A stretch of 63,750 bases of DNA, filler included, from Folioceros fuciformis (GCA_049999805.1; 8 parts of 8 records of this genome joined end to end with filler, not necessarily neighbours in it); one strand, 5' to 3'. Shown: positions 9,786 to 53,445, counted from the whole stretch's first letter. Numbers and translations: made by a program. Notes: a model not told the origin generated them from the sequence alone.

Positions 9786-9885
9786 NNNNNNNNNNNNNNN
9801 NNNNNNNNNNNNNNNNNNNNNNNNNNNNNTTAATTAATTAANNNNNNNNNNNNNNNNNNNNNNNNNNNNNNNNNNNNNNNNNNNN
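9786..9885. other. Artificial contig spacer
   Basis: N run, TTAATTAATTAA (stops in all six frames), N run. Identical spacers at 24229-24328, 38262-38361, 46884-46983, 49953-50052, 52853-52952 and 61654-61753. Confidence 0.99.
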
Positions 9886-24228: not shown

Positions 24229-24328
24229 NNNNNNNNNNNNNNNNNNNNNNNNNNNNNNNNNNNNNNNNNNNNTTAATTAATTAANNNNNNNNNNNNNNNN
24301 NNNNNNNNNNNNNNNNNNNNNNNNNNNN

Positions 24329-27300
24329 TAATGCCACTCGAGGCTGATGACTCAAGTCCTGAACCTCCATCTGGCAGGTACTGAGTTCCTGTTGACAACG
24401 CGCAAGCTGCGACGCCAACTCCGTCCTCTCACTTGCCACAGACACCATCTGCCGTTCTAATTTCGATATGATTTTCAAAGATTTTGCATTCTCTTTCTCA
24501 AGAGCTTTGAGACGGTGCGCCAAAGCCTCTTCACCATAAACCTCAGTTACATGGTTTTGGTGCCCATCCTCCAAGAGGTCATCTAACTCAAGATCTATAT
24601 TTAGGTCCTTCAGCCTTCCCTCCAACGACATTCTTGCTGTCTGTAGTGTCCCAACTCTCGATTCAATCTCCTTGTCGAATTCTGCGATACGAACCTGCAA
24701 CCTGTCCACATGCGACAGGCTTTGCCTTCTATCTTCATGGGAATGAGAAAGCTGCTCTTCCAAGATACTCCTCATACTCTCAAGCTCTGCCAACCTTGAC
24801 CCCATTTCCCCAATCCTAGCAACTTTATTAGAAAGTTGGGAGTGAAGCTCCTGGACCTGGCTTCTTGTCAACCTGCCTTCCTCTTGAGCCTCTAGAAGCT
24901 GATTTTCTAGCACTTCATCCTTCGACTCCACATTCATGACCATTGACACTTGAGGCTTCTGACGAAGCTCCTGGTTTTCCGCTTGAACCTGCAGAAGTTG
25001 CTTCGCTAGTTCAGTTCGTTCTCCTGAAACAGATACCACCTGCCTTTCCAACTTCTCTATAATTTGCAGGAATTTGGCATTCTCACGTTCAAATGCTTTC
25101 AGCTGATTCTCTAAGCCTCTTGATCCTTCGTCTCTCTGGTCATCGGAATCTGGTTCCATCGTCACATCATTAAGTACGTCGCCCAAATCCAAATCGATCT
25201 GCAGCTCCTTCAATCTGCCCTCCAGTCCTGATCTTGCTTTCTGAAGGTCCCTCACTTTGGAATCGATCTCTTTATCAAACGCTGCTATGCGAACCATTAG
25301 CGAGTCGACATGAGATAGACTCTTCCTCTTGGCATCGTGTGCTTCAGAAACCTGTTCTTCAAGTTCTTTCTTCATTGTTTCTAGATCAACTATCCTAGAT
25401 GCCATGTCGTCAAGTTTAGTAATCTGCCCCGTAAGTTGACGATGAAGTTCCTCAACCTGAGACTCCCGTATCTTGCCCTCTTCCAGGGCTTCAAGGAGCT
25501 GCCTTTCAATCGCTTCGTCCTTAGACTCAACATTCATAACCAGGGAAACCGCTTGGCGATTGCTGAGCTCCTCGATACGAGTCTGACAAGTCTCAAGTTC
25601 ACTTTGAGCATGCAAGAGTTTTCTTGTCAACTCAGCCTTATCTGCAGACAAAACTACCACCTGCTTCTCCAATTTTGCAATAGTACGTAAAACTTTCGCT
25701 TGCTCTTGTCCAAATCTGTTCACTGTAGTACGCAAACGCATGTCTTCTGTAACGGAATCATAATTCCCAGCTTCCCCATCCTCGTCGACATCGTGGTGCC
25801 CTTCTCTCTCCTCAGGGATACCTATCTGATGCTCTTCAAGTCTGGTCTTCAGAGAATCTCGTGCTCTTCTCAACTCCCTAACCTTGTTCTCAATCTCACT
25901 ATCAAACGAAGCTATACGACCCTGGAGCAAAGCAACGTTAGAGGAACTCTTTCTTCTTTCATCATGCGAATGAGCAAGTTGGCCTTCTAATTCACCCCTC
26001 CTCTCTTCAAGTTCGTTGATTCTTGACTCCATCTGTTCAATTTTTTCAATCTGAGCTGTAAGTTTGACATGCAGGTGCTGCGCCTCAGATTTGCTCAGCC
26101 TGCCCTCTTCTTGCGCTTCTTGAAGCTGCCTTTCAATAGCTTCATCTCTCGTGGCAATGTGCATGATCAACGAAACCCGATGCGGTTGCTCCTTCGCCTG
26201 TCTTCGTTCTTCCTGCGTCTCGTTCAGCTGCCTCACTAATTCAGTCTTCTCAATCTGAAGACGTGCGAGCTTGGCTTCCAACTCTTGGGATGTGGACGAG
26301 TGGACATTTAGCTGCTGGAATAGATCCTGTATCTGTGACTCGCTGCCCCTCCTCTGTTTCACCAGCTGGTTCTCGAGATCTGCTCGTTCAGCTTCGAGTT
26401 TGCCAAGTTTTGCCTCCAATTGTATTTGCCTGGATTCCTGAGAGACATGATCCTCAAGATACTGCTTAATCTGGCTCTCGGACCGCTCGATCCTGTTCAA
26501 CAACTTGTCCATCTCAGCCGCTCTAATCCGCTTCTTGTTCTCTGCTTGGTTGTCCACCTTTTGAAGTAGATCCTGTATGTAAGATCTAGAGCTTTTGATG
26601 TCTTCCTGAGCCTCGGTGAGCTGCCTCTGCAGATCAGACCGTTCTAATTTGAGAGCTTCTATCTCAGCCTGCATTTCTTGCGCACTTGCTGTGTGACCAT
26701 CCAGCCGCTGCCAAAGTTCATCAAGTTGATTTTTGCTGTTTCTCCGTTCATCTGCCAACTGGGTCTCCAGCTGAGCTCTAAAAGCCTCTAGATCTTGAAT
26801 CTTTGACTCCATTTCCAGTCTCCTGGAGGCTGGTACAACATGATGTTGCAGAAACTGTTTGATTTGCTCTTCAGACTGGTCAATTCTACTCATAAGAATT
26901 TCTACCTCGGCGTTCCCCCCGTCTCCTTCACACTTATATTGCCTCCCCGCTTCTATAGCCTCCTGCAGCTGCCTCTGTAACTCTGCTTTATCGGCCTCGA
27001 GACTGCCAATTCTCGCTTCCATTTCACCCCTGCTGAGCGTATGGGCATCCAATCTCTGCAAAAGCTCCCCTACCTGACCTTCACTCACCCGTCTCTCGTG
27101 CAGTATTTGGCCCTCCAACTCACCTTTGAGCGTTTCCAGCGACTGTATCCTCGATTCCAACTCCGCACGCTTTGACCTCGGTGCTACGTGATATTCCAGA
27201 TACTGCTTGATCTGCTCTTCAGATTTGTCAATCCTGGCAAGGAGCTTTTCAACTTGGGTATTCCCCTCCGCTTGCAAATTTTCAGACGTCTCCCTCTGTC

Positions 27301-29943
27301 TAATTTGCTCCTGTAGTTGTTGCATTTGAACCCTGGTAACAGTAGCATGCTCCAAAGCTTCACGCAGCTGCTTCTCCAAATCATGTTTCCCATGCTCAAG
27401 ATGCGCAATCTTCGCCTCCATTTCTGCTGTGCTACCGGCATGCTGGTCAAGTTGTTCTGAACTCCGCCTTCTCTCTTCCCATAAATGGTTTTCCAATTGA
27501 GCTCTTACACCTTCGAGCTCCTCAATCTTGCCCTCCAATTCTGCACGTCTTGAAGCTTGAAGATCATGTCGATCGAGAAAATCTTTTATCTGATCTTCAG
27601 ACCGCCCAATTCTGTCAAGAAGCCTTTCCAATTCCCCTCTGCCAGATGATGTATGATAACCACCGCTCTCCGACGAAGTTGTCGTTTTCTCTAATCGCTC
27701 ACGCAATTCCTCCATTTCAAGCCGACTGAGATTGCCCGCTTCCAGCAGTCTAGTCTCTGCTTCAGAGCGATGAGCTTCAGAGTGGGCAATCTTTGCTTCC
27801 GCTTCTTGCATCGCACTCGTGTGCTGATGCAACAGGTCAGTGAGATCACTGTTTTTCCTTCTCTCTTCTGACAGTTGGTTTTCCAATTGCATCCTCAACA
27901 TCTCAAGGCCCTCGATCCTAGAGTTGTATTCCTGTAGTTTTGCACCAGGAACCACATGCTCTTGTAAGTAGTCTCTGAGTTGATCCTCTGACCTCCCAAT
28001 TCGGTTGATCAGCTTCTCCATTTCAGCAGTTCCAAGCTTTTGCACATTGTTCTTCGTCTCCATTTCCTTTTCAGCCAGTTGTCTTCGTAGTTCATCTATC
28101 TGAGACCGACTGTGCATACCATCCTGCATAGCCTCCTGTAGCTGCCTCTCCATATCACCCTTTCCAAGTTCAAGTTCCATGATCTTGGCTTTCATCTCCT
28201 CTCTAGTTATGGAGTGAAGGGTTACCTGATCAAAAAGATTTGTCTTACCTCTTTGTTCTTCCAGCAACTGCTTCTCTAATTGAGCCTTTAACATTTCAAG
28301 CCCATCAATCTTCGACTCCAACTCAGCTCTCTTTGCTGTCTGCAGATTATGGTGGTCTAGAAAATCTTTGATTTGGTCCTCCGATCTGCCAATCTTGTCA
28401 AGCAGACTCTCCAGCTCTTTGCTGCCAGGCAATTGGCTTCGATGTTCTGCTTCATGTCTGACACGCTCGGCCAGTTGGTCACGCAGTTCCTGCATTTGGA
28501 ATGAGGTCATCCTGGCTTCGTCTTCAGCACCCTGCAATTGCCTCTCCAGCTCAGTCCTCCCAAGCTCGAGACGCATGATTTTATCTTCCATGTCCCTTAC
28601 TGATGCATTATGAATGTCCTGTTGGGCTTCGTTAGCCTCTCGAAGCTGGGACTCTGCAACCCGGAGCTGCTCTTCCAAAGCTGCATTTTTGCCTTCAAGA
28701 TCACGGATAACAGACTGAAGACGTTCGACCAGCCTCTTCTGTGACAGAAACTCCGCCTCCATGGAGCTCCCGGGCTCTGCTGCAACGGTAGCTTTTTCAC
28801 TGAGCATGCTCGGCTCACCGCTTGTAGACGGTGCCTGTATGAGCCAGGTATTTCGATTGCCGAGCACAGCCGAAACAACAAACATCAAACAATGTAACGA
28901 GAAGTTGACTACTCAGGGTTACCATATCTGCATCAGGCTGAGCCTCAGCCTCAGCTGCAGGGTTGACATCACTCTCTGCCGGTTCTGGAAGTGGAAAGCC
29001 GTAAGCTGGCCAGCTGCTGCAAAAGCCAAAAACAAGTTCTCAGAACACCAGAGTTTGGTCAGGGTATGTTCCTTCAACATCACAGACCTGGGGCATCCCC
29101 CGTTTCGACAAGCCAGGCCCGACACAACAGTTTCCGAAGTACCTGAAGCCTGGCCTCGGGGTGATACACTGAACAACAACCTGTTCATCATCCAGCAACG
29201 GGGAGGATTAAGATCAGCACATGCTTATGAGCCGTGTTTAACAGAATGCAAAGCACTCGGCAAAGGTCCAGCAACACATATAGGAGCTTTGCACACATGC
29301 AAGGTGGTGCCTGCGTCGTTTTCCTTTAGCATCAAGCTGATATGAGCTTCACTATTAGAGCTTGCCAACAACGCAACATCTAGCGTCGCCTCTCCCAGAA
29401 TGTGAGTACGAGTGGAACCCTGTCTCAACCACAACCGGAAAAAATGTGGGAAACCTTCTCAAAACTGTAGCAATTGGAAGACATGAGCTACAGTTGATGC
29501 CGGTTTGAACCTTGGATACAATAAACTTGTAAATCTTTGGTTGATATGACTCCCCATCCGCACCCATGGTTAACTTGGCGGTCTTGATGACAGAGTCCGG
29601 CCACGAGCACTGCCCGTCTTTCACAACCGCCTTGGAAGTTTTGATGCTTGCCTTTCCAGTGGCAGAGGACACCATGGAAATAACCAGTTTCTCCCATCCA
29701 CTGGGCACCTGGACAGGAGCAGAATGCACACTGTGGTCAAATCCTGGGAAATGTCATCCGACAGAGCCATGCGTTCCTGGGCTTGGCACCATTCGAGAGC
29801 AACTTACCAATGAGACAGACCGTGTAACTCGGAAGCAGACTCCGGAGTGAAACGGAAAAAGAAACCTGTGTTACGCGAAATCGAAATTTGAAGTCGATCT
29901 TCTCTTTCTTCCTTCGCTTGGGTTCCTCTGAAGTGGACTCCAT
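24329..29943 (-). CDS. NT-C2 (EEIG1/EHBP1-type) domain protein with a very long repetitive coiled coil; 3' truncated
   Basis: Five small 5' exons give KKEKIDFKFRFRVTQ|VPSGWEKLVISMVS...KTSKAVVKDGQCSWPD...KIYKFIVSK|GSTRTHILGEATLD...GTTLH|VVVQCITP (plant NT-C2), followed by one uninterrupted exon from 28834 to at least 24329. Confidence 0.9.
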
Positions 29944-30011
29944 GGTTTCCAAGCATTCGTGGATAGCGTACTAGCCGACAATGAGGATGTTGACTGAAAG
30001 CGTATGAACCT

Positions 30012-30282
30012 CCTGACGTGTTGGAATCCAGTCAACCAATATCAGTCCATAATGTGAACCTGAAGGAGAGTGGCAAAAACAAGATACCCTGCACTCTGAA
30101 CATGTCCTCTGCCGCTGCCACTCTCTCACAGCATTTGTGCTAGCCGGCTTGGAACAGGAAGAAGCAGTCACTCAATTCGTATGATTCCTCTGACGCCTTT
30201 GGGTCAACCAACATCAGTCCAAAATGTGAACCTGAAGGAAAGTGACAAAAAAAAGGTACCCAGCAATTTGACCATGTCCTCT
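30012..30282. repeat. Degenerate direct duplication (about 95 bp) upstream of the NT-C2 gene
   Basis: gtcaaccaatatcagtccataatgtgaacctgaaggagagtggcaaaaa versus gtcaaccaacatcagtccaaaatgtgaacctgaaggaaagtgacaaaaa; copies at about 30012-30110 and 30189-30282. Confidence 0.8.
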
Positions 30283-31949
30283 ACTTCGTGACGGCCCTCG
30301 CAAAACACCTGAAAATAAACGGTCGGATGCTCAACAGCGGTGCCTCACTCCTGCAATATGCATGCTCGTGTGGCCATTCCTAGTCAAAGCTGCATGTCAC
30401 CAAGGGGCACTCATTGTTTGTTTGCTGGTTCCTATGGAGGAAGGACCAGATAAGATGACCAAACGCCTTCCCTCATTGTTTCTTGCTGCAAGAACAAGTG
30501 TAACCATGCTGCAACTTGGGATGCACAACCAATCCCATTTTCTCAGTGTGCTGACCGGCAGCAGACCAAGCCTGTCCTTTCTGCTGTTCACAACCATAAT
30601 GCTACCAAGCTTGTTGCATTGATATTCAGGCTCCTAGTAGCGCAATTTGCAGAGTTCAGTCCACGTACGCGTCACGAGCTGGGCAGAAATCCATCCATTC
30701 ACAAAGTGCAGTTTCCAGTCTCTCCAACCGAATCGAATATGTCCATCCATGCGGGATACTATCCGACGGCGATGCTGTGAGCCGATTTCGGCATTCAAAC
30801 CAGAATGAAGCGGAACAGTGCCCCAATCTGACCTAACCCATCGTATAGTAGCGATTATGCTCGGAGACTGTGATCGCTCTGGATGAATATGAACTCCACT
30901 GATTCGACAAGAACGAGAGAGCATACAGGTGCTGGTGGCCGAGATTGGGACGAACAACCCCGGCAGAGAAAGGATGTGCCGTTAGCCAGAGTTATAAACC
31001 CTGTAGCGCGAGAATGTGTCAAAATGTACGCGGAGCTAAACCATGCTATAACTTCTGGTGCCAGCTGCAAAAGTCCGAGCAATGCCGTCACAAGCGGCAG
31101 TGACGGTAATTCCCAACCATCCTGAGGAAGAAAATGTGCCGCTCAGAAGCCACAAGGTGCTGGAACATTGCGGGCAGTTGTTCCATATCAGAGAGACAAG
31201 AAGCTCGGACCTGGTTGGTGGTCTGGACTCGAGATCCTCGCCGGGTGTGACAGCTGAATGCCGAGGGAAAAATCACCAGCAATTCGCGGATGACAATTTC
31301 AAGAATTGCGTTTCTTCGGTGTTGCTTTATCTTCTTCCGCTGATCCACAAGAGCCGCAAGTGTAATTTCAATTCCCTCGCAGCCGCGTCGCCGTCCCAAC
31401 AGCTCTGGACTGCCTAGAATCAAACGACGGACAAGACACACCGAAAGAAGCAAATGTCAGCCCCCGCGCTGCACATTCAACGGCGTCCTTCCTTGGACAT
31501 ACCCAAGATCCCAAGGACTTGGAAGGGAGACACGAGGGGGTAAAGTGACGTGAGACCGATAGGGGGCAAGTGAAGAGGATGATGAAGAGTTGGGGAAAGA
31601 GGAGGCTCCGAGATTGGAGGGGACGATGACCAGGTGTGCTGACATGTCGACAGGAGCGATTGAGCGAAGAAATGGCGACGACGCCCTATTCTTTCAGGAC
31701 AACGTTGCGAGCCAACGGCAACAGGCAGAACGCTTCGCCGGCAGTTCTTTACTTCACCCCTCCTCCTTCCAAGTCCTCCAGCTCCCAACTCCACCATGCA
31801 ACAGCTGATGGACGATCACAGTAATGTCTACCACGCAGGACCCTTCCCACCCTTGCAATTCCTCTCCTGTGCTCCGCGGTGATCCGCTTCCGGCCTTGCG
31901 GATTTCCCGGCCGCCGCAGCAAAGGAGCCGGGAACCTGCTCCCCTCTTG

Positions 31950-32370
31950 TCCCACCCTGATTTCATTCCTGCACAGCTTCTGGTAACCTGCAGCAATGTG
32001 CCGCCTTCAGAACACCGCCCGCTCCGTGACCTTCTTCTCCGGTACGCTCACCAGACGCTCGTCCGTCCCTCCTTCCCTAGCAGTGCAGCGCAACGCGTTC
32101 ACAGTGACATCCACCCTACTGCGACGATCCAGCACCAGGCTAAAGAGCCGCTTCTTCTGCACACTAGGCTGTCATGAGCGCCGCGACCTGCGCATTCCAG
32201 GAAGTGACGATACGACCAGGCAATCCGCAGAAAGCCAGAAAATCGCATTCCGGAGCAGAGAGCGTGACGTTCCTGCTCCCACCATCCTCGCTCACTGCGT
32301 TGCCGAATCGGCTATGCCTCCCGCCGTAGAGACCCCGCTCGGCCCTGTTCTTCACGACGTCGGCGGCCAT
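31950..32370 (-). pseudogene. RPL28: Mitochondrial-type ribosomal protein L28 (bL28m) pseudogene
   Basis: RAERGLYGGRHSRFGNAVSEDGG|SRRS*QPSVQKKRLFSLVLDRRSRVDVTVNALRC...AVF*R; in-frame TGA at 32172-32174 and 32007-32009; intron 32188-32272 begins GA instead of GT. Confidence 0.85.
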
Positions 32371-32629
32371 GGCCTTTCAGCGGAAGGCTACGGACACAGC
32401 GAGCCGCACCCGACAGAGTGTCAGACCGTTGTCATGTGAAGCTGCGTGCCGATGTGCCAAGGCCTGGCCTTCAGTTCTTCGTTATTGAAGAGAAGATAAT
32501 TTACACCCACGTTCACAGGAAAGAAACTCTTTGCGATATCGAAGGCCGGTGTGAATGGCGAGATGTCTGTCACTGTGAACTCCCGACGAAGGAATGGCGA
32601 GGTCCTGCACCATGTCTATGAGATATCTC

Positions 32630-33680
32630 TGTGTCCACGTCCCGCTCCCAGTCAGCACTAGCTGTTGCTGCGTTATGCCAGGCTCAGGTCTCGCGCCAGG
32701 CTAAGGAGATGCGTCGGAGGGGACTGTTGCGGACCCAACAAATTGGTGTGTATACAGGGATCCTACGAGAAGCTCCCGCTCACCTCACCTCACCTCTGGA
32801 AGTCAGTTACCGGCGAACAAGCAAGCCTCCAGGGGCAGCAGAGTAAGGAGCCCAGCACTGCCGCTTCCAAAAAATCTGTGGTTTGGGACCAGTTATCCAG
32901 CGATGGTGGTCGCCAGGAGCAGGAGCAGGAGCAGCTGCGGGAACAATTTCGTCTGGACCCTCTCATATGGTGGGGTACAGCAAGGACTCAGCCAAGAGGC
33001 CCTTGATCTGTATGGACGAATGGAGGAGGAGGGCGTGCACGCGACTGACCATATAACTTTCGTCTGCCTTCGCAAGGCGTGTGCAAGCACTAGTTGAGGT
33101 CTTTGTTAAACGCTTGCAAAAGTCACGGGAACAGAGAGAGCCAAGAGGTGTTTCGAAAGCATTGTCACACTGGACCCTCACCGGGCTTCTGCCTATGTGA
33201 TCATGGCCAATGCCTACTAAGATGCGGGCACGTGGAGCGATGTAGACAAGATCGAAACAATGAGAATGCTGGCAGGAGCTGACATGAAACCTGCAGCGGC
33301 GACCATTGAGGTGAACAAGCAGGTACACAGATTCGTGGTAGGAGAAAGAAGGCAGGATATTGCACGGAAGTTAGACAAATGCACGCCTAAAGCAGGAAGG
33401 CGGCCACGTACCTCACACGAAGTTGGTGTTGAAGCCAGTGTGTGAGAAGGGAAAGGAAGATCTGCTTCGTGGACACGCTGAGAAACCAGCTCTGGCGTTT
33501 GGCCTCTTGCACACTCCGAGTTGGGCACCGCTAGTGGTGACGAAGAATCTCCGCATGTGCAGTGACTGCCACTGTTCCACTGAGATCATGTCAAGGCTTG
33601 AACGTAGAGACATTTTTGTGAGGGATGGGTACGGCGAGCACCGTTTTGCAGCTGGCTGCTGCAGCTGCAAGAGTCGGTGA
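32630..33680 (+). pseudogene. PLS-class PPR protein with E1/E2 and DYW:KP deaminase domain, disrupted
   Basis: P motif (QGLSQEALDLYGRMEEEGV..DHITFVCL.KAC), E1 (RSLLNACKSHGN), E2 with in-frame TAA at 33218-33220, KPAAATIEVNKQVHRFVVGE, frameshift near 33375, then GHVPHTKLVLKP...GHAEK...KNLRMCSDCH...GCCSCKSR*. The 5' boundary is approximate. Confidence 0.9.
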
Positions 33681-33776
33681 GAGTAGAGGAGGCCTACCCT
33701 CAGGGGCTCAAGTGTGTACGTACTGTCTATGTTCGAAAAAGTCGCTTGTTGAACAATCTGGACCTTCGCGCCCTTA

Positions 33777-33890
33777 CTTCGGGAATGTAAAAAGTACATG
33801 CTTCAGGAATGTAAAACGTACATCCTTCAGGGATGTAAAAAGTACATGCGTCAGTAGTTGCGCTTACTTCACGGATGTAAAAAGTAGAAG
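33777..33890. repeat. 24-bp tandem repeat (three adjacent copies plus a fourth) next to the tRNA-Pro 3' end
   Basis: cttcgggaatgtaaaaagtacatg / cttcaggaatgtaaaacgtacatc / cttcagggatgtaaaaagtacatg, then cttcacggatgtaaaaagtagaag at 33867-33890. Confidence 0.9.
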
Positions 33891-33911
33891 CGTGAGTAAC
33901 GGCTCAGCAAA

Positions 33912-33983
33912 GGGGCATTGCGAGAATCGAACTCGCGACCTCTTGCACCCTAAGCAAGAATCATACCACTAGACCAAATGCCC
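33912..33983 (-). tRNA. trnP-AGG: tRNA-Pro(AGG)
   Basis: Reverse complement GGGCATTTGGTCTAGTGGTATGATTCTTGCTTAGGGTGCAAGAGGTCGCGAGTTCGATTCTCGCAATGCCCC folds into a full cloverleaf with A and B boxes. Confidence 0.96.
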
Positions 33984-34176
33984 TCACACAACAACGTAAG
34001 TCTATAAAATTTATTAAAACATATTATAATATTAAATAATTGTTTTAAAATACAAATTCAGTAGAAGCTGCCTTGTAGGAGTGGGTAGCCGCAAGTTCCA
34101 TTTATAGCATGAATCTCTATGAGAATTGAAGTTGCAACAAAATAAAGTATAACAAAATAAGTGCCATGAATCACAA

Positions 34177-34282
34177 GATTGAGTAAGTGCCACATCCTTT
34201 GTGTTTTTCCCGTTGGACCTTATGATTTTGAGTAAGTACTAGATTCCTTGTGTTTGCAGTTGAACCTTATGATTTTGAGTTA
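34177..34282. repeat. Imperfect tandem duplication, unit about 50 bp
   Basis: ttgagtaagt...tgtgttt...gttg(g/a)accttatgattttgagt occurs twice. Confidence 0.7.
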
Positions 34283-35008
34283 CAACGCATGTATCAATAG
34301 TGACTTACAAGTGCACAGGTATACAATGTGTTAGATAGACTTTAGAGAGATCTTCCCTCCAGGCTCAGCATTTCAGAACCCCTATGCACGGATCCCTGCT
34401 TCACCTTGCTGGGAAGGCTTGCTCACCCAAGGCATTTCTGTAGTAGTTGTGAAAACAACACTCAGACCAGGTTACGTGATTTGTTTGAAATTACTTAAAG
34501 TTGAGCAATGGCTGCACGGGCCATACAGGGCCCCGGCCCGGCCTTCAGCACCTCCCCACCCACCCACCAGGAAAGTTCCGAACGTTGCTAGCCTTGAAGC
34601 ATTCTCCAGGCAACAGCACAAGGCTTGGGTTGTAACCGATGGAGGGGAACCAAGTACGACGAGATCGATATGAAAAGTTGCCACAATGGTAGCTATCTTT
34701 CAAGAGTTCGGGTGGTTTGATCCCGCATCCACCTTTGAGACTGGCAATGATGAACAGGCCAAGGGAAATGCACACCGGAACACGTCCCCTGCACGGTAGT
34801 GGCAAGTAGCAGGAAGAACCTGAGCGAAGGGTGCAGAGTTGCGGAAAGTAGAGGCTCCGAGATTGAGGGGCCCAGGAAGGATGATGCGTTTGTGGAGTGC
34901 AGCGCTTGGAGGATGACATGTCGGCAGTACCCTAATCTGCGGGCCAAATTGGCGACGGAACAAGCAAAGGCAGTGGGCTGATCGAGAGGTGCAGCCTGCA
35001 GCACTACG

Positions 35009-36888
35009 ATGGCTGCATTCAGGATTGCCTCGTCTGTTGCCCACCTTCCTACTCTCCAGCCCTCCACGTCCAGAGGCTCCGTCCCTCTGGGCGGACGCAC
35101 GAGGGTTCAGATCAGACATGCCACAGCGGATGGTGACCGCCAGGCAGAGCCCTCTACGGTCTGTGCACTTGACTGCCAGCTTCTCCGACCTCTAATGCTT
35201 CCTGCTGCTGTGAAGCGATTCCCACTGACTGCTTGCTTGCCTCCGCCGTCTTGGTGCAGAGCTCCACGGCCACCGCAGCCGATGTCGAGAAGGAAGACTT
35301 GGCTGCAAAGGTGCGCTGTCCTTGCGTGAATATCCCGATGCGTAGCATCAGCAGGACAAGCATGCAAATTTGTTGGGCTGTAGTGGCTGTACTGAATACA
35401 TGGGCTTTGCAGCTCAATGCGCCGGGTCAGGGAAGGAAGACTCGGAATTCACTGTGCTTTTCCAGTTGGCAGCTGCAGAGGCAGAGGCCGAGGCATTGCG
35501 GAAAGAGCTGGCAGCCAGGAGGGGCGGCAATGCATCGGCCGATCTCTCCAAGTTGAAACCCGCTGCTCCAGAGAAGCGCATCGACGGGACTGGGTACAGG
35601 GAGACTCTCTTCTCCGGGCCGGGCACAGCAGCAACTGGTACGTGGTCATCTTCTGCAAATGCTTGATACGCTGTCCATGACGACGGCGTGTCTGAATGGG
35701 AATGGGTGAGGAGTGGCGCACCAGGATCAACCGAGCAACAGAGCAAGAAATGGGGGCTGTCAGAGGCTGAGTTGTTCCTGTCCAAAGGTGCTCCTACGGA
35801 AGGGACGGGTCTGGCTATTCCAGCCATGGACGAGGGTTCCGATGACCTTGTGAGGCGACGGCTCATTATCGGGGTCGGAGTCACTGGTGTTGCCGGAGCC
35901 TTGGCCTTCGTACGTAGCTCCATCCTCGAAGATTGCATTGCATCGCATCGCATTGTCGCCTTGTCTGAATTCGTGACGAGACCTTCCCATGTCAGGTGAA
36001 ATTTCCCAGAGGGAGGCCTCCCAAGCCGTTGTTCTTCTACTTGATTTCCATTATCAGGCTCGGCGAACAGTTGCAGCTCATCGAAGACTCATCATCAGGT
36101 ACAGGATCAGCACCTGGAGCTGTTCCTACGACACGAAACCCTGATGCCGACTTCCTCTCCGTCATAGATTTATCCACACTTTCGTTTTGTGTCAAGATGC
36201 GGGATCTGTCCGAGCGCAGCTAAGGAGGGCATATGGATCACCAGATTCCGTAAAAGATGACTTCCTCAGGTTCACCTAGTCCACCAACAAGAGAGCTTTC
36301 TTGCATGCTTTCACTGCCAAGTCATATGGGTTGTTCACCTTCTGTTTGGGTTCCAACAGTGTGGTGGCGTTTCTCGAAGGAGCAGATGCAGATCGAGCCA
36401 GTCAGCTGGCATACGCCATTTTCGAGTATTTAGACCAGGTACGTTTGTTCTGGAGATCCATGATTGGTGACGACCTGTCGATCATTGCTGAAACGTTGGA
36501 TGTGTGGGCCGGGTGACAGGCTGATTACAGTAAGTACTTCGAAAATCTAGGGGAACCCACAAGCACTCAGCAGTAAGTACAGCCCGGACTATCCGCCTTG
36601 GACTCTTATCTTCTTTGCAAGGATCGGCTTGTTGTTGACTGTTCACCCCAACTCATGTCCTGATGGTGTGTGTGTGCAGGGTGGAATTCCTGCAATTCAG
36701 CTTGCAGTCCATCAAGGTAATGGCATGATCTTCTCCAGCTGTTGTGCTCCTGAAATATGACAAAACGTTGAACACCGATGCTTACTCTGCGATGAAACGC
36801 GCAGGCTGCGCGAGAAAGAATAGACGAGTTTGTGCGACTAGCCCCCTCGGAGTCACTAGAAGCGGCTTTATTGCAGGCGAAGGAATGA
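35009..36888 (+). CDS. Uncharacterised putative plastid (thylakoid) single-pass membrane protein; 10 exons, about 330 aa
   Basis: GT-AG exons 35009-35158, 35260-35310, 35466-35637, 35725-35909, 35996-36098, 36197-36269, 36360-36438, 36520-36572, 36680-36716 and 36805-36888 splice in frame. Ser/Ala/Arg-rich transit-like N-terminus, RRRLIIGVGVTGVAGALAF helix, helical C-terminal domain. Confidence 0.75.
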
Positions 36889-37032
36889 TGAGCATCCAAG
36901 CATCCGAGCCCCACTGCTGGGAGTCCCTGCTTATCACAGAGCAACTTATTAGGTCTACTATGTCTGACAGGCTTCTCTAGTTACACAAGCTTCCTCCGCC
37001 AAATATCCGTATGCGTCTTCCCCAAACACCTC

Positions 37033-37674
37033 TCAAGTCACTCTCTCCAGATCGTGACGCTTGTGCCACTTCTCGATGCTTTCGTCCGGATACAGTGGGA
37101 ACTTCTTGTCCCCAGGCTTCACCTCTGGCTCCACCCAACTTGCTTTGAACTTAAGCATGATATGAGTGGTCTCCGGAGGAACAGGGAGGTCCGTGTCTAC
37201 TGCCGAGGCATGTGGATGCACTAACTCCGGCCACCTTGAATCGTAAAGCCACAGCTGACAACCGCATTTCTTACAAAACTTGCGTTCCGCAGAGCTCACC
37301 TGCGCGATTCACCAGAAGGGTCAAGAAAACCCAGAGTACAATCCCCACATGCTGTGCAGGCACAAAGTACCTCGGGAGGATCGGCAGAGGAAAGGATCGC
37401 GTTGTAACTTGTGATATTTTCCTCCCCTTCGATCTTCAGGGTAGCGCAGTCAGCAGCTAGGTTGATAGCGTAACCACCCGATCCCGCGGTCTTCCGGCAT
37501 ATTCCGCAGTAGCATCGCTAGATAGAGGCAATATGACGGATGACAATCCTTCCAAAGGCCCCAGCAAGTGAGGAATGAGAGCCAAAGGTGAGGGCGAACC
37601 TGGTAAGGATATGGGTGTTTGGATTTGCACCGAAATTTTACACCACCGCAGTGGCAAGACCCGTTGAGCTCCAT
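37033..37674 (-). CDS. GFA/CENP-V (Mss4-like, Zn-binding) family protein; exons 37674-37600, 37517-37371, 37299-37033
   Basis: GSCHCGGVKF...PYQ|RCYCGICRKTAGSGGYAINL...|RKFCKKCGCQLWLYDSRWPELVHPHASAVD...YPDESIEKWH; splices in frame to 162 aa. Confidence 0.9.
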
Positions 37675-38045
37675 GTTCGCGTCAGGGGAAGCTGAAGCAG
37701 CGTTCTTTCAAAGGAGAACAAGCAGCGCCGAGGTTGCTAAAGTCACAGCAACTTCAGCCTCGTAGGAAGCAATGCTTCTTAAAGCCGAGACAGACACAAA
37801 GAGAGAAGCTAGACCTGGCACGTAAACTGATTTGCACGCGAGGGTTACAGAGGAAGTGTGCAAATGAGCTACACTTCACGACAACAGGAAATAATCTGGC
37901 CCAATATGCGTAGGACGGATTACAAGTGACCGGCGCGTGGCTGCTGTGTCACTGGCAGTCTCCATCCCACGTGAACAGCTCACAGTGGAGCAGCAACAGC
38001 GGAAGACAGAAGACAAAAAACTGCGTGGCACAGGATGAGCGCCAA

Positions 38046-38261
38046 TCACAGCTGCGGAAGCTTGCCTGACAGGAATATGGCAAACTTGGACACCGTTGAC
38101 AAAGAGTGAGCGATGCCGTGGCTGCGGAGGAAATCCTGCAGCAGCTCTCGGATGCGCTCTGGTTCCGTTGTCTCCACTTCGATCTCGTAGTTGGTGCCGA
38201 AGTCGAAATGTGTTTCATCCAACTCGATCCGGTGTCCTTCCCACTTATAAACGTTCCTCAC
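38046..38261 (-). CDS. TTM3: Triphosphate tunnel metalloenzyme 3 (CYTH domain), C-terminal part only
   Basis: VRNVYKWEGHRIELDETHFDFGTNYEIEVET...SKFAIFLSGKLP; cut by a spacer. Confidence 0.88.
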   Translation of the reverse strand: MRNVYKWEGHRIELDETHFDFGTNYEIEVETTEPERIRELLQDFLRSHGIAHSLSTVSKFAIFLSGKLPQL

Positions 38262-38361
38262 NNNNNNNNNNNNNNNNNNNNNNNNNNNNNNNNNNNNNNN
38301 NNNNNTTAATTAATTAANNNNNNNNNNNNNNNNNNNNNNNNNNNNNNNNNNNNNNNNNNNN

Positions 38362-46883: not shown

Positions 46884-49800
46884 NNNNNNNNNNNNNNNNN
46901 NNNNNNNNNNNNNNNNNNNNNNNNNNNTTAATTAATTAANNNNNNNNNNNNNNNNNNNNNNNNNNNNNNNNNNNNNNNNNNNNGCCTCATTTAATATTTT
47001 CTCCCTGGGCCCGGAATTATGAGGTCGTGCTGATTGCTTACGATCCCGAGGGACCCCCTTCCCCGAAGTCCACCCATATACACTTTCTCTATGCTACGTA
47101 GTGGAACCACCCAGCTTCCTTCAGGCCAATAGAGCAGGTTCTTGTTGACTTCCTGGACCCCATGGCATTGCTGCAAAAGAAGTGAATATAAATCTTCCGC
47201 TTTCCTTCCTCTAATGATGAACATACACTTTATTGAAAAACAAGTCTATCTCAAAACAAAGGAAAACAAAACTACAAAAGCAACTGAATGGAGGAGGGAC
47301 ACACCCCTACACTTCTTTAAATTGCATTCGCCCACGCCCTTGGAAGAGGGCTGAACACTTGATATGCAAAGGTCAAAATATGAGATGAACACCTGACATT
47401 GAAAGGTCAAAATATGAGATACAGGGAGACCATCTCTGTTCTTCAACCTGTTGGGGTAAACTTTGGCACAAGTCTTAAAAAACTTGCAGCATTGCTTACA
47501 TGTGGCTCCATAGTTCTTGATAGCAAAGGAAATGAAGATATGCTCACCCTACATGTGTCTTGGATAACTTGCAGCTATGGTGGCTCCTCTACAAATTGTT
47601 GTGGACAGTTTGCAACCGTCATGGCTCCTTTATATGTACCCACAATCATAGTCACTTGGACATCAACTTGTGATTGTAGAAGGTTTGTATACAAAGCTTA
47701 GTCAACTCGATGTATGGATATGTGTTGTTCAAAGCCATCACAACTGGTAACAAAGCTTGGAAGCCTACCTCTTGGAGGGGACTTGTCACCACTATGAGTC
47801 ATTAAGCAGCAACCTGATGTGCTTGTTTGTTACAACATGTGGAGAGTACAGTTCATCAAGAAGGCGGAAAGAGTCATGTGGCATGGGGGAGAACACATTG
47901 GATGTCGTATAGCTAACCCAACTTCTTGTAGGGGTGCATCAGCTATTGCACCCAATAGAGTTGCAATATGCAGAAAGTAGTGCTTGGGCAACTTATCTAG
48001 AGGCCATTACTAGCTAATGTCTTGCCGGTGCATGTGGTTTTAAGCTATCAAACCCAAGGCATCTCGATGGAACTAGGGATGCAGCAAAAGTTGAATTGTG
48101 GGTACATAAGATTCGAACATACTTGGAGCTCAACGACATGAATCCTTAGTACTACATGTAAGTAGCAGTCACGTTCCTTAGAGGCACTACCTTAGAATAA
48201 TGCGCACAATTCTTAGAAGGGGATGCATGTGGGGAAGAGACAATGACAAGTAATTTGCTTTAGTCTTTGCGAATGGTTCGATCAACAACATCAAGCCTTT
48301 GGGTCTTAATACATGTTTTAGAATTGCACATAGTCTTTTGAAACATTTCAAGCTTCCTACTTTCTTCTCTATGTCTACACCTTCGCTCTTCTTGAGCTCT
48401 AGATATTTCATGCTATCCAACATGTCAGGCTATTCATATGACATTTAAGGGTCCATTGATCCTTTTAGTTTTTTTTTGTTGTTCTTTTCGGTGTTTAAAA
48501 ATAAATAAAATCACTATATTAATGAAATAAACTTACCACTCTATCCATGTCATATAAGTATACACAGTTAACAAGTAAACAAAATGCAACCCTCAAAATC
48601 CTTCAAAACTCCAAGGACATATGTGTTGCTACATACTAAAGTAACATTGGATAATGTCCTATTTGTTAGGATCATCTAATTTAGAGTGTCCTAAAGAACT
48701 TTTAAGCTGGAGATAGACCACCTAAGCCTAGCTCTAGCTAGCTCCATCAACTTTAGTGGTTTGCTTCACCTCTTTCTCATTTGGTAGCCCTAGTACATAG
48801 TTTCCCATCTTTTTTTTTTTCAAGTCAAGAAGTAACCCTTCTAATACCTACAATGCTTGGCACAAGCATAAGCCAAATATGGGATGCATGAAGGTGAACA
48901 ATTCTAGACACAACTTTACCAAGTGCCCACAAGAGTAAGGTGCAACCCTAAACCCTAGACATATCAATCACATAAGAGATGCTCAATGTCATCAGCTATT
49001 ATGCTTTGGACACCTTTATGGCCTTTCTTTCTATTAGTGAAGAGTTTCTTTTAGGAAGTACATTTTTTCTCATTTCTTGTTTTCCTTTTAGCTTTAAGGA
49101 GACTTTGAGCCCATTTATAAACTCTTTTAACTTCAAGCAAAAAGCAATAGTTTAAAAATTGCCTTGTCTCAAGAGAGCAATTTGATTGCTTTATTAGTAT
49201 GAAGACAAGTACTTCTAGAACATGTAGAGAAGATGCTAGTTAAAAAACAAACCCCACTAATTCTTGCCACTAATATTTATATATTATTCAAAATAATTCT
49301 TATATTTTTTTCTTATTTTTGAGCTTTTCGATGTCCAATTATGTTGTAAAAATTAATTCGAATCATTCATTTGTGGAGACATGCTCGTGCTTCTTTCCAA
49401 TAGGACTTTTCTTAATTCACAAATCCAACACAAAATGTGTGGGAGTGAATGGCTTTACCTAATTTTAGAAAAATGGATAAATTTTTTGATGATGTATGTG
49501 GACTCCTCTTTCCAATATAGAGGAATGACACAAGTTATTATATCTCTTGTAGCTAGTTTGGTTGAATATCTTTGAAATATGAATTATATGTTATAATTTT
49601 TATATCCATAATATATATTATGTACATGAGCGATGTATCTTGCACTACAAGGTGTTGTGATATGAAAATGACGTCATAAAATTTTATTGTATGAATTGTA
49701 CTTAAATCTAAGATTATAATTTTCATAAATGAATTTTTTTAAAGATCTTAAGAATAGGAAAGAAGGTCAAAGAAGCAATGTCTAAAGACTAGGCAGAAAA

Positions 49801-52800
49801 ATATGTAAATAGTGGAAAATAGAATTCTCATTATTTGTCTAGAAAAATGAGTGAAATATATTGTAAAAAAATAAAATCTTGAATTCGTTCTTAAATGACT
49901 TGAGAATCTTGTTGGGATGAAACTTGGAAGGCTGACAGCCGCTCCTATAGCCNNNNNNNNNNNNNNNNNNNNNNNNNNNNNNNNNNNNNNNNNNNNTTAA
50001 TTAATTAANNNNNNNNNNNNNNNNNNNNNNNNNNNNNNNNNNNNNNNNNNNNCTCCCGTCTGAAGTAGGCGGTTCTACTTCTTGACTCGGTATGCCAGCT
50101 GCTGAGGGGTGCTAGCGGGTGTTACTAGTGCATGTTCGAGTACGTTAAGAGCAGTATGGCCAGCAGAAAGTGAAGAGGATTGGAAATCGCTGATCCTGAA
50201 GTGCATAATATCCGATGATGATGCAGGGAACTAATGGGCAGCAGTAGAAGTAGCAGCATTGCTTGGTCATTCTGCTGAGATGCAGCAGTCCTTGCTAATT
50301 CTGTTTAGATGCAGCATTCCTTGCTCAGATACCGTGTTGGGGAGTCTGAGCGTGGATTGCGTATACCAGTTCGCCAAAGACTTCAGCTGCAGCCTCGTCT
50401 TTGAAGTTCTTCAAGATTCTGATACACCATTCTGCAATTTGAGCAAGCTTGTGCAAACACGTCCGTTCGTCCCTCATTACCATGAGCTTTCAGGTTCAGT
50501 ACGTGCGTGACATCTATGTCGATCGACATGCAGGCATGGGAGGTTTGCTAGCCTCCGCCAGACTGCAGATACAGCGAAGCGTCTACCACACCACCCGACA
50601 CACTTCCAGGCTTGCGGAGCCCTCACTCATGCTGTCGCTTAACGCTCAAATCCTGCGTGCAAGCGAAGGAGTCGTGATGCTCACTACCAAGTGTTTGCAC
50701 ATGGATCCCTGTCCTGCTGTCTCCTAATTCATTACCAGGGCACGATCCCTATTGCACACAGGTCCACGATGGGACCAGAAGAAACTTGGTTTTGGAATAC
50801 TGCAAGACTCCACACCGGTTCCAGAACGTTCACCTTGCCATTTTTTCCCGTCTCGGACCGTCGCAGGGAAGCACCGGGTACAGGAATAGAACGCCACATT
50901 GAATGCGCCCCTCACACAAGCATGCCATACCCGCCCCTCGGTCCCGACTTACGCGCGCGTTCGCGTTAGGCAAACCCTTCCTGAAATGAAACCTGCGACC
51001 CATGGCAAGACGTTGCTAAACATACTCTCTATGGACCCCACGGCGTCCAGGCTTCCGGCACGGTTGGTGCCGGGGACACCTAGGGAACCGGACACGATAA
51101 ACCAGGAGCTTGTTGCCCCGCTTGCCCTGCCTCCCTGCCTGCCCTGCCCTGCCCGAGGCCAGCTTGCTATACTGGTCTTGTCTGCTTCCTGCTTCCTTGC
51201 CCACCTTGCTCTCCTTTCCTTGTGGATCTTGCTTGCCAACAAAGTCAACCTAGGACGCATGTGCTGTGCCCTTGGATGTGGGTTGTGGGATGTGGGCTCC
51301 ATCTGCACCGAGACTTCTAATTTTGCATTCCCAATGTTCGTTTGCATGCACAACTGTGCATGTGTGGCGGGAAATCTCCCTCCGACTTGTGTGAATTCCC
51401 ACATCTACAGTTCCTTTCCTGGTCGACCATAAGGCTTAGGCCAGCTTCTTGGGATGGGTTGTGAGCACCGCCGAGCGGGTCGCAAAAATCGAAGTGACGC
51501 CGGGATTGGGGATATTTTCTGGCATGCATACCTATGTACAGTATGGTGTGACTTCGTCCTGGCGGGAAGATGGGCACAACATCTAGCTCAGCCGCCTTTG
51601 GAAGAAGATCTGAACCCTCCGTCAGCTCACTCTCTTGGGATGAAAGGCTGGCCCATGGAACATGAGATTGGCTGTCGTGAATCCTTCCGTCGGTGGGTAG
51701 CTATGAACTATGACTTCAATAATTTTTAATTCAAAACATATATTATCTGAAGTAAAAAGCTTCACTACATTCAAAGACATGCATTAAGATGAATACTACC
51801 CATGAGGTGGTACTACTTGTTCCAAATAGGTACACCTAGCTACTTGTTCCAAAGGCATTCTTACCTTTAGGGACCCATCTAGTTACCAATTTGAGCACTA
51901 CATGTTGAATCCCAAAGTTCTTATAAGTAGAACATGCTTAGTCCCAAAGCAACTCAAAAGAATGGTGGGAGGGAGCCCATGAACGGTTTTGTGCCAACAC
52001 AGTTTTAAGCTTCCTATTTAGCTTTGAGTAACCTCATCAATCCCACCATAGAGCATATACACTAATTTGCTGCATACATATCTAACAAGACCTTATCTTA
52101 ACTAGTCAAAGAAGGAGCTAAGAAAGAATGAGATAGAATTGGTGCTTATTACACATGTTCATTCACATATCATAATCTTTTGTCAAATTTATAAGATCAG
52201 CTTCCTGATCTGGGTGATGTGCACTTCCTAGCCAGTTGAAGATTTTCCGAAAGGTCTTCTTATCATCGTAAGATAACAACATTACTGTTAGTTTGAACCT
52301 CTTCACTTTAGTTAGTCCTTGAAGTATGCAAATAGCTCCCTGCATGTGATAGTGGAGGAAACAACGTGTCTTGTCAGTAGCCAAATCAACTTACTTCACT
52401 ACATGCTTTGGTGGTAACCAAATATGCTTATCTCTTAAGCTACTAGGTACACACCCTTGGTTCATGAGGCATGTAAGCTTTGCATATTATTTTAGCAACA
52501 AGTCGCATGATATTAGCACTAAGAGATTCCTTGAATATTTCCGGATACTTATTCGAATCCACTTGACTAACATACTCTTGTAACAACTCGAGTTCATCTT
52601 GCAGACGAGTGCATCCTCGCTCGAATTGTAAAGCTGTAGTTGGGGGGAGTGGTAAGGTCATTGGGGTTTTCTTAACATCTATGTCCAAACTGCATGAAGC
52701 ACAAGGTTTCTCCTCACTCTCAGAAGATGCTGACAATAGTGGTTCGATAAGTGATCCAGCTTCTTCTGAACCCAAAATTGATCTCTTTGTTTCTCCATCA

Positions 52801-53445
52801 GACTCATCTTGTTTTGACGTTTCTCGAATAACACTTTCACTTAAATCTTCGANNNNNNNNNNNNNNNNNNNNNNNNNNNNNNNNNNNNNNNNNNNNTTAA
52901 TTAATTAANNNNNNNNNNNNNNNNNNNNNNNNNNNNNNNNNNNNNNNNNNNNTGTCTGTGCAGGTGACTGTGCAGCACACCTCTAACGGCCTACAACAAT
53001 CACCTCACGAAAATGGCAAAGCCTACGTAGGTGATCAGTAGCCGTTCCAAGTAGTTTGTAATGTAGAATTTTGATAACACAAATCTACATTACTTATATT
53101 CTGATATAATCCATTGTCCGTGCAAAAATGAATTCCAAAATTAGCCTTGATATAACATCAAATCTGTACTATCCTGAAAAAATGACCTTCCCAATAGTGA
53201 CACACCTCCTACATGGAAGTGTGCCTATGCTACAGAAATCCTAGATCAGATCCTTCTCTATCCAGAACTAACCGAGTGATAAATCTGCGGATACTATGTC
53301 TGAATAGGCTACCTTGCCACTCCCTCCCCACCCAAACACCACTACTGCCACACCTGACCCCATGCTTCGTGCTGCACGTTGTATACCTCCCCTACACAGT
53401 AAAGGGAACTCACGCCTTTCCCAGCGTGCCAGACGGTATGAAATC

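Follow-up and report, generated by a model that had tools for sequence, protein, structure and literature searches.

The 63,750-nucleotide (nt) stretch of Folioceros fuciformis DNA analysed here (GCA_049999805.1; referred to as the window) carries on its minus strand an exon of at least 4.5 kb, which is filled with diverged protein repeats and preceded by exons for an NT-C2 domain, and this raises the question of what sort of protein such a gene would make and how its repeats arose. To our knowledge, plant NT-C2 coiled-coil proteins are poorly understood. We consider it rather probable, if by no means certain, that the locus is a single protein-coding gene of a land plant, in which NT-C2 exons are joined to a giant exon and the 3' end is missing, and that it encodes a coiled-coil rod or scaffold, dimeric, about 0.2 µm long and anchored to a membrane, on the plan of the RPG-type NT-C2 coiled-coil proteins. 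The gene lies at the low-coordinate end of the contig 24329-38261, and its 3' part is cut off by a real contig end.

The minus-strand frame is free of stops from 28912 to 24329 (P0001, 1528 amino acids (aa)), and the giant exon occupies 4506 open nt exactly where a preliminary description of this DNA had placed it. That description had recommended a comparison of the protein with itself, and a BLOSUM62 diagonal scan of this kind gives its strongest self-offsets at 131, 200, 209, 409, 247 and 116 aa. The core of a first module, A, recurs six times, at aa 170, 301, 431, 557, 673 and 804 of P0001 (spacing 131, 130, 126, 116 and 131 aa), with core starts in the window at 28405, 28012, 27622, 27244, 26896 and 26503. 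The start of a second module, B, recurs three times, at aa 913, 1122 and 1322 (spacing 209 and 200 aa). The resulting units are as follows.

28463..28726, minus strand: A0, a truncated A-type copy without the N-terminal third, aa 63-150 of P0001 (A profile 41.4 bits, profile positions 39-129)
28049..28441, minus strand: module A1, 131 aa (core repeat, tblastn, profile)
27659..28048, minus strand: module A2, 130 aa (core repeat, tblastn, profile)
27281..27658, minus strand: module A3, 126 aa (core repeat, tblastn, profile)
26933..27280, minus strand: module A4, 116 aa, with a short C-terminal end (core repeat, tblastn, profile)
26540..26932, minus strand: module A5, 131 aa (core repeat, tblastn, profile)
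26186..26539, minus strand: module A6, 118 aa (core repeat, tblastn, profile)
25559..26185, minus strand: module B1, 209 aa (start repeat, tblastn, profile)
24959..25558, minus strand: module B2, 200 aa (start repeat, tblastn, profile, AlphaFold2 (AF2) model)
24350..24958, minus strand: module B3, 203 aa (start repeat, tblastn, profile)
24329..24349, minus strand: first residues of a fourth B module, ..HQPRVAL, cut by the contig end (aligns with the B starts)

The preliminary description had counted six A copies, near 28380 to 26480, three B modules and a contig break at the start of a fourth. The cores between 28405 and 26503, in units of 116-131 aa, bear out six full A modules, to which the truncated A0 has to be added as a seventh A-type copy; the three B modules of 200-209 aa are confirmed, and the terminal ..PRVAL fits a B start. 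A0 was left out when the A profile was built, and the noise of the profiles, taken from 200 shuffles of the protein, does not exceed 6.7 bits (A) and 7.3 bits (B) per domain. When A5 and B2 were compared with the window by tblastn, the other copies were recovered at E values of 1e-19 to 1e-53, and no A or B copy was found outside 24386-28426 anywhere in the window, other contigs included. Two sets of related public contigs, X6 and X4 (described below), run past 24336 and 24330, respectively, and their hand-translated letters resemble the next residues of a B module. At the DNA level, three microsatellites were the only repeats found and there was no tandem repeat with the period of a module, the longest period covered being 500, so that the approximately 600 nt of B lie beyond this range.

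The two modules, which had been described as different, turned out to be related. Aligned by hhalign, A 32-105 matches B 43-120 with a probability of 93.4 and an E value of 2.5e-7, giving a common core of about 75 aa within which an (R/K)RxS motif lies. The A profile also matches every B module (26.5, 25.6 and 19.7 bits), with weaker A-like pieces on either side; coiled-coil composition can inflate such A-B scores, and shuffles that keep the composition stay at or below 6.7 bits. A and B are thus two subfamilies of one unit and, judged by these profile comparisons, the rod goes back to a single ancestor, its core about 75 aa long, that has been copied at least ten times and has split in two. 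Long coiled coils commonly grow by internal duplication. Between copies, protein identity is 33-50% (A) and 43-56% (B) and DNA identity 47-60%, and identical residues are encoded by the same codon in 288 of 723 cases among A pairs and in 126 of 277 among B pairs. Since the codons mostly differ even where the residues are identical, the likeness is held at the level of the protein and does not stem from recent duplication or gene conversion. By this codon measure, the module copies are old and under protein-level constraint.

Public contigs that were compared over 24329-30400 bear on the same point. The X6 contigs, which carry another organism label and are classed as RNA by a guess in their record that we support here by four intron-sized GT..AG skips, are 90-95% (about 93%) identical to the window. 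One X6 contig of 4775 nt is colinear with 24336-29019, from which it differs in 339 letters besides 51 letters of gap, and keeps the whole order of A and B modules. Its insertions and deletions in the coding part are +30, +9 and -12 nt, and those upstream of the ATG are 1, 1, 1, 4 and 1 nt. The 30 extra nt fall at the border of A4 and A5 (26923-26931), where A4 is the short copy, and the 9 extra nt in A2 (27737); module ends appear to be places that tolerate changes in length. Among 40 listed of the 384 X6 differences, 24 are in third, 9 in first and 7 in second codon positions, with 19 synonymous and 18 non-synonymous codons, a pattern that roughly resembles moderate purifying selection. The view that diverged copies in an intact frame reflect selection is therefore borne out by the codon usage of the copies, by the in-frame changes and by the third-position excess, and an untranscribed exon, which the preliminary description had named as a finding that would refute its reading of the protein, is not what the spliced and colinear X6 contig indicates.

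The remaining contigs add little to this picture. Those of X1 (DNA) tile the stretch without differences, and X1 is possibly the source sample and hence not independent. X3, which has the same species label and is RNA by guess, contributes six identical contigs of 154-236 nt, all within the giant exon, and an additional piece of 40 letters at 25953-25992, 4 of which differ; 28186-30400 has no X3 contig, so that its contigs neither show nor exclude expression in this species. X4 (organism B, DNA) is represented by no more than two pieces, each of 22-23 nt and located within 24330-24498, which say little on the extent of the gene. A further X6 contig, of 50 nt at 26091-26136, has a depth of 88.8 as compared with 14.2 for the long contig, and could be a short sequence common to another abundant transcript.

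Could the array nevertheless be a decaying or neutrally drifting repeat frame without function, that is, a pseudogene or an artefact of assembling a repeat? The gene is cut by a contig end, no relatives of it were found in large protein libraries, and the assembly depth is low, about 6-12, all of which would suit such an origin. Yet the frame stays open over 1502 codons, in copies whose synonymous sites are saturated, and the X6 relative keeps the whole array colinear with in-frame length changes only and an excess of third-position differences; the X1 contigs likewise cover the region without differences, with the reservation already given as to their source. We regard a functionless array as extremely improbable.

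Upstream of the giant exon, the reading of a single gene requires the NT-C2 exons to be joined to it. X6 contigs skip 157, 91, 116 and 126 nt, each skip having GT..AG ends on the minus strand once the cut positions are shifted accordingly, and the available part of the gene consists of six exons, the acceptor of the giant exon lying at 28835/28834.

29866..29943, minus strand: exon 1, coding part, with start codon and basic N-terminus (MESTSEEPKRRKKEKIDFKFRFRVTQ) (open in the spliced model frame; donor by the X6 joint 29706/29864, GT..AG)
29511..29708, minus strand: exon 2, main part of the NT-C2 domain (Pfam PF10358; X6 joints on both sides)
29297..29419, minus strand: exon 3, C-terminal part of the NT-C2 domain (weak NT-C2 continuation; X6 joints on both sides)
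29143..29180, minus strand: exon 4, 38 nt (X6 joints 29178/29295 and 29016/29143, GT..AG after the cut shifts)
28923..29016, minus strand: exon 5, Pro/Ala/Glu-rich linker with a microsatellite (acceptor at 29016 by an X6 joint)
28835..28922, minus strand: putative intron 5, 88 nt, GT..AG (its removal keeps a single open frame)
24329..28834, minus strand: giant exon, 4506 nt or more, with 1502 codons before the contig end interrupts it (open frame; colinear X6 contig)

Apart from intron 5, this structure is read from the joints and the open frames. The spliced model with intron 5 removed is one open frame of 1679 codons, and with intron 5 kept the NT-C2 frame meets stops. The coding linker contains a hexanucleotide microsatellite of the (GGCTGA)n type, 3.8 copies at 28933-28955, which codes for AEAEAQ, and it is exactly here that the X6 relative is 12 nt shorter.

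The NT-C2 assignment was made exon by exon. Exon 2 matches the Pfam NT-C2 profile (PF10358) over positions 22-89 of 143 with 29.2 bits and an E value of 8.4e-7, above the cut-off of 25.2, and exon 3 continues the match at positions 87-130 (11.7 bits, E 0.2). The domain is N-terminal, starting about 15 aa after the start codon and spanning about 140 aa in total, and it is preceded by the basic sequence KRRKKEK; the earlier assignment to the NT-C2 proteins is thereby confirmed. The N-terminal motif presumably resembles that of RPG-like proteins. The NT-C2 domains of EHBP-1 (PMC4894640) and of PMI1 (bioRxiv 10.64898/2025.12.30.697064) bind phosphoinositides and, by analogy, the head described here probably does so as well.

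The giant exon is supported as coding for a periodic helical rod both by its sequence and by structure prediction. Its composition (Glu 15%, Leu 12.6%, Gln 9%, Arg 9%, Pro 0.8%) is that of a coiled coil, low in Pro and high in Glu, Leu, Gln and Arg. The heptad a/d contrast is 0.43 as against 0.26 in shuffles, 35% of windows lie above the 95th percentile of the shuffles, and heptad registers are stable for over 100 aa. In the AF2 models, module A is a single helix over residues 7-130 (predicted local distance difference test (pLDDT) 91, predicted template modelling score (pTM) 0.40, 6-row alignment), and module B2 consists of helices at 2-26, 32-119 and 145-199 (pLDDT 80, pTM 0.33, 3 rows) with an acidic linker of low confidence around 120-144. 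A dimer model of A1, made without the module alignment, is parallel and in register, with i-to-i contacts of 3-4 spacing over residues 10-129. Its score is 0.32 and that of the best of 3 controls 0.00, the runs agree on at least 96% of contacts, and the partner pLDDT is at least 84. The mark applied to such scores was reached by 21/30 microbial proteins whose solved structures are pairs of one chain and by 0/23 whose structures are single chains, and by 17/29 and 0/30, respectively, in eukaryotes. The rod may dimerise in vivo, as far as the model is a guide. On the modelled interface lie 13 of the 17 invariant columns of module A, including both invariant histidines, H31 and H76, and the invariant Arg of the (R/K)RxS motif lies off it. 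This motif, which would fit basophilic kinase sites, is present at residues 481, 607, 723, 854, 986, 1195 and 1395, that is, in 7/9 full modules (A3-A6 and B1-B3).

Instead of forming a two-stranded coiled coil, the modules might fold back into spectrin-like or other antiparallel bundles and make up a chain of compact repeats, an arrangement that we judge quite improbable. The unit lengths of 116-131 aa are near those of bundle repeats, conserved Gly, Pro and His recur at fixed positions of the modules, and the low pTM of the monomer models (0.40 and 0.33) would agree with it. Set against this, the AF2 helix of module A runs over residues 7-130 without a turn, the heptad register holds for over 100 aa, the two chains of the dimer model run parallel and in register over the entire module, and no spectrin-type family appears among the Pfam matches listed, save for one at E 2.5.

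A second alternative comes from Pfam itself. The core of module A (SEDQIKDFLDHH..) resembles the Ish1 motif (PF10281), and the whole protein scores 32.4 bits against this profile (E 1.1e-7), above the cut-off of 26.6, with the best stretch at aa 177-198 in an A core. Were each A module an Ish1/HeH motif of the SAP/LEM-like kind, the protein would be a multivalent binder of nucleic acid or the nuclear envelope that is tied to a membrane. The HeH motif is defined as a helix-extension-helix fold, in contrast to the modelled module, in which the Ish1-like motif sits inside one unbroken helix with pLDDT above 90 and its conserved residues L13, I17, S20, L28 and H31 lie on the heptad interface of the dimer model. 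Taken singly, only two of the six A modules match, both below the cut-off (A1 17.5 bits, A3 12.6 bits), and the other four have no Ish1 match at E values up to 10; the A profile finds no HeH protein among PDB sequences either, its matches being coiled coils throughout (best E 0.02). We consider an Ish1/HeH identity very improbable and reject it on account of the sub-threshold single copies and the continuous modelled helix on the heptad interface, and we treat the whole-protein score as an accumulation of weak repeat matches. For annotation this is a warning, given that the whole protein passes the Pfam cut-off although no single copy does.

Having set these alternatives against the two-stranded rod, we searched for its relatives. 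The rod had no matches among 7996 scored candidates of 840-2674 aa, and an exhaustive phmmer search with aa 160-1359 of the rod against 1.84 billion cluster representatives gave none at E values up to 0.001. NT-C2 exon 2, compared with longer proteins, found none among 18 candidates. As a control, the DYW open reading frame (ORF) of the same contig retrieved 7 plant-type PPR proteins among 96 candidates, one of them from Vanilla planifolia, so that plants are present in the collection behind the 7996 candidates; the control covers that collection only. The A profile compared with PDB sequences gave only coiled-coil noise, the nearest ESM Atlas clusters are generic coiled coils with scores of 0.85-0.87, under the line of 0.9 for more than a lead, and the modules match no described family in the Pfam or PDB-sequence searches. 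In the open-access literature covered, no title or abstract deals with an NT-C2 protein built as a repeat array. As far as these tools see, the modules appear confined at the sequence level to this organism and close relatives such as X6. Coiled coils diverge fast, and missing relatives are therefore no proof of a new gene family. Part of the claim that the ordered A6-B(n) design is not a recognised one can thus be kept, in that no relatives were found in the libraries searched, but an NT-C2 domain followed by a linker and a coiled coil is known from RPG (PMC9991063). A role in the sperm cytoskeleton or in organelle anchoring, also suggested in the preliminary description, is unsupported by the present evidence.

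From the repeats, common origin, constraint and helical character documented above, the following picture of the protein may be drawn. An NT-C2 head of about 140 aa would act as a phosphoinositide membrane anchor and would be followed by a short Pro/Ala/Glu-rich linker and then by a parallel, in-register, two-stranded rod of about 1400 helical residues. A helix rises by 0.148 nm per residue, so that about 1400 residues would measure roughly 0.2 µm, a minimum given that part of the gene is missing. The rod arose when a single unit, with its core of about 75 aa, was duplicated in tandem long ago and then split into subfamilies: A with seven copies, each predicted to be a continuous helix of about 19 nm, and B with at least three and a bit copies, in which an A-like core would be joined to extra helices and a flexible acidic hinge. 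Along its length, the rod would display the same surface features periodically, namely the exposed motif of Arg-Arg-x-Ser type in seven of nine full modules, and each A module would place its two invariant histidines at the dimer interface. The coiled coil would drive self-assembly and partner binding while the NT-C2 head binds the membrane, as in an RPG-like scaffold or tether; we infer the binding of lipid, the role as scaffold or tether, and whatever regulation might act via the RRxS or His positions.

A ruler is one possible reading of such a periodic rod. According to its full form, units of about 19 nm (A) or longer (B) would all carry the Arg-Arg-x-Ser site, and A units the two core histidines as well; phosphorylation by a basophilic kinase, or a change in pH or metal, would loosen or zip the rod unit by unit, and the rod would determine how far a phosphoinositide membrane lies from the target of the missing C-terminus, in a family that belongs to one land-plant lineage and is unrelated in sequence to known tethers. 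We hold this regulated ruler, taken as a whole, to be decidedly unlikely.

Several points weigh against the membrane-anchored rod as we have drawn it. The RNA nature of X6 is a guess of its record and is argued only from the spliced joints, and the joint between exons 4 and 5 rests on a contig with just 22 letters on its shorter side. The AF2 alignments have very little depth, with 6 and 3 rows that all come from this same protein, and a long single helix is a frequent default. The A1 dimer score barely reaches the mark, and the pass may reflect memory, coiled coils being abundantly solved. The missing C-terminus may hold further domains. As concerns the architecture, the coiled coil of RPG suffices for punctate localisation and function (PMC9991063, PMC9931111), and Lotus RPG is localised and functions without need for its NT-C2 domain (PMC9931111); the anchor role proposed here is hence an extrapolation that should not be assumed. 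The likeness to RPG proposed here is one of domain architecture.

The weightiest of these points concerns intron 5, which is inferred only. The X6 contig passes straight through 28835-28922, none of the listed joints spans this segment and, if it is retained, the NT-C2 frame reaches a stop after about 210 aa and the frame of the rod is unconnected. The 88 nt would then be unspliced and the locus would make two products: a short protein of about 210 aa from the NT-C2 exons and a rod without a membrane anchor, from its own start (the first Met is at 28807) or its own transcript. This arrangement is unlikely in our estimation. The segment has GT..AG ends, is T-rich and, with its 88 nt, comes close in length to the four introns that X6 joints confirm (91-157 nt); its removal restores one frame exactly. 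Moreover, the X6 contig stops at the acceptor of exon 5 (29019), as would be expected of a spliced transcript, contigs drop rarer variants, so that a form with intron 5 spliced may exist unseen, and NT-C2 and a coiled coil in one chain are already known (PMC9991063). The annotator should be aware that the call of a single protein or of two depends on this 88-nt intron.

The single-gene reading also places the locus in a plant, and here its surroundings are informative. The same contig encodes a DYW-type deaminase domain at 33375-33680 on the plus strand (PF14432, E 3e-28), which indicates a land plant. The best relatives of this domain are PPR-DYW proteins with 62-65% identity; PPR-like ORFs begin at about 32700, and the PPR part upstream of the DYW domain sits in ORFs of other frames, so that this may be a PPR-DYW gene whose frame changes reflect an intron, frameshifts or a pseudogene. 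A CYTH domain (PF01928, E 1.9e-7) is found in an ORF at 38046-38261 on the minus strand, which breaks off where the contig ends at its high-coordinate side. Cys-motif-rich ORFs (CHCGG.., CYCGICRK..) at 37033-37707, also on the minus strand, presumably resemble GFA/CENP-V-type proteins; two of them, 37033-37308 and 37296-37517, have no Pfam match at E values up to 0.001. The same holds at this threshold for a frame of 233 aa on the adjoining contig (21719-22420, minus strand) that looks VPS13-like by eye. The window consists of eight contigs joined by spacers, and genomic linkage across these is not implied.

9786-9885, 24229-24328, 38262-38361, 46884-46983, 49953-50052, 52853-52952 and 61654-61753: spacers between contigs, each N44 + TTAATTAATTAA + N44

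Among known systems, the closest in design are RPG (RHIZOBIUM-DIRECTED POLAR GROWTH) and its uncharacterised plant homologues, which share the order of NT-C2 domain, low-complexity linker and long C-terminal coiled coil in one chain encoded by several exons, the coiled coil being the functional scaffolding element (PMC9991063, PMC9931111). The same order is found here, provided that intron 5 is spliced out. In contrast to RPG, for which no repeats of this kind are described in the text of the two papers covered, the rod strings together, in a fixed order, at least ten diverged copies of one unit in two subfamilies; the linker has about 55 aa instead of a long serine-rich disordered region; and the protein, although incomplete, has at least 1679 aa as compared with 1255 aa in MtRPG. 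PMI1 (PLASTID MOVEMENT IMPAIRED 1) and EHBP1/EHBP-1 also have an N-terminal NT-C2 domain, which in those proteins binds phosphoinositides and places the protein on the membrane (bioRxiv 10.64898/2025.12.30.697064; PMC4894640). According to these reports, the rest of PMI1 consists of disordered regions and that of EHBP1 of CH and Rab-binding domains, not of a repeat rod; the word 'coiled' is absent from the PMI1 preprint (bioRxiv 10.64898/2025.12.30.697064). Golgins (GOLGA2), rabaptin, HOOK, DAPLE and periplakin, which make up the nearest ESM Atlas clusters given above, have a similar rod composition and similar language-model features and are likewise long dimeric rods anchored at one end, but they have other anchor domains and no sequence homology to the rod, so that the likeness is one of kind only.

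The gene is, in sum, a lineage-specific version of a known protein design, in which no new mechanism is evident and which is otherwise an ordinary long coiled-coil gene. It shows that an NT-C2 protein can have for its rod a series of copies of a single unit, arranged in order and maintained over a long period, and its conserved exposed and core positions could be mutated module by module, which would offer a natural test of rod length as against the number of repeated sites in a membrane scaffold. Compared with the RPG design, the differences are that a unit duplicated in ancient times forms an ordered array, that the linker is short and that the protein is larger.

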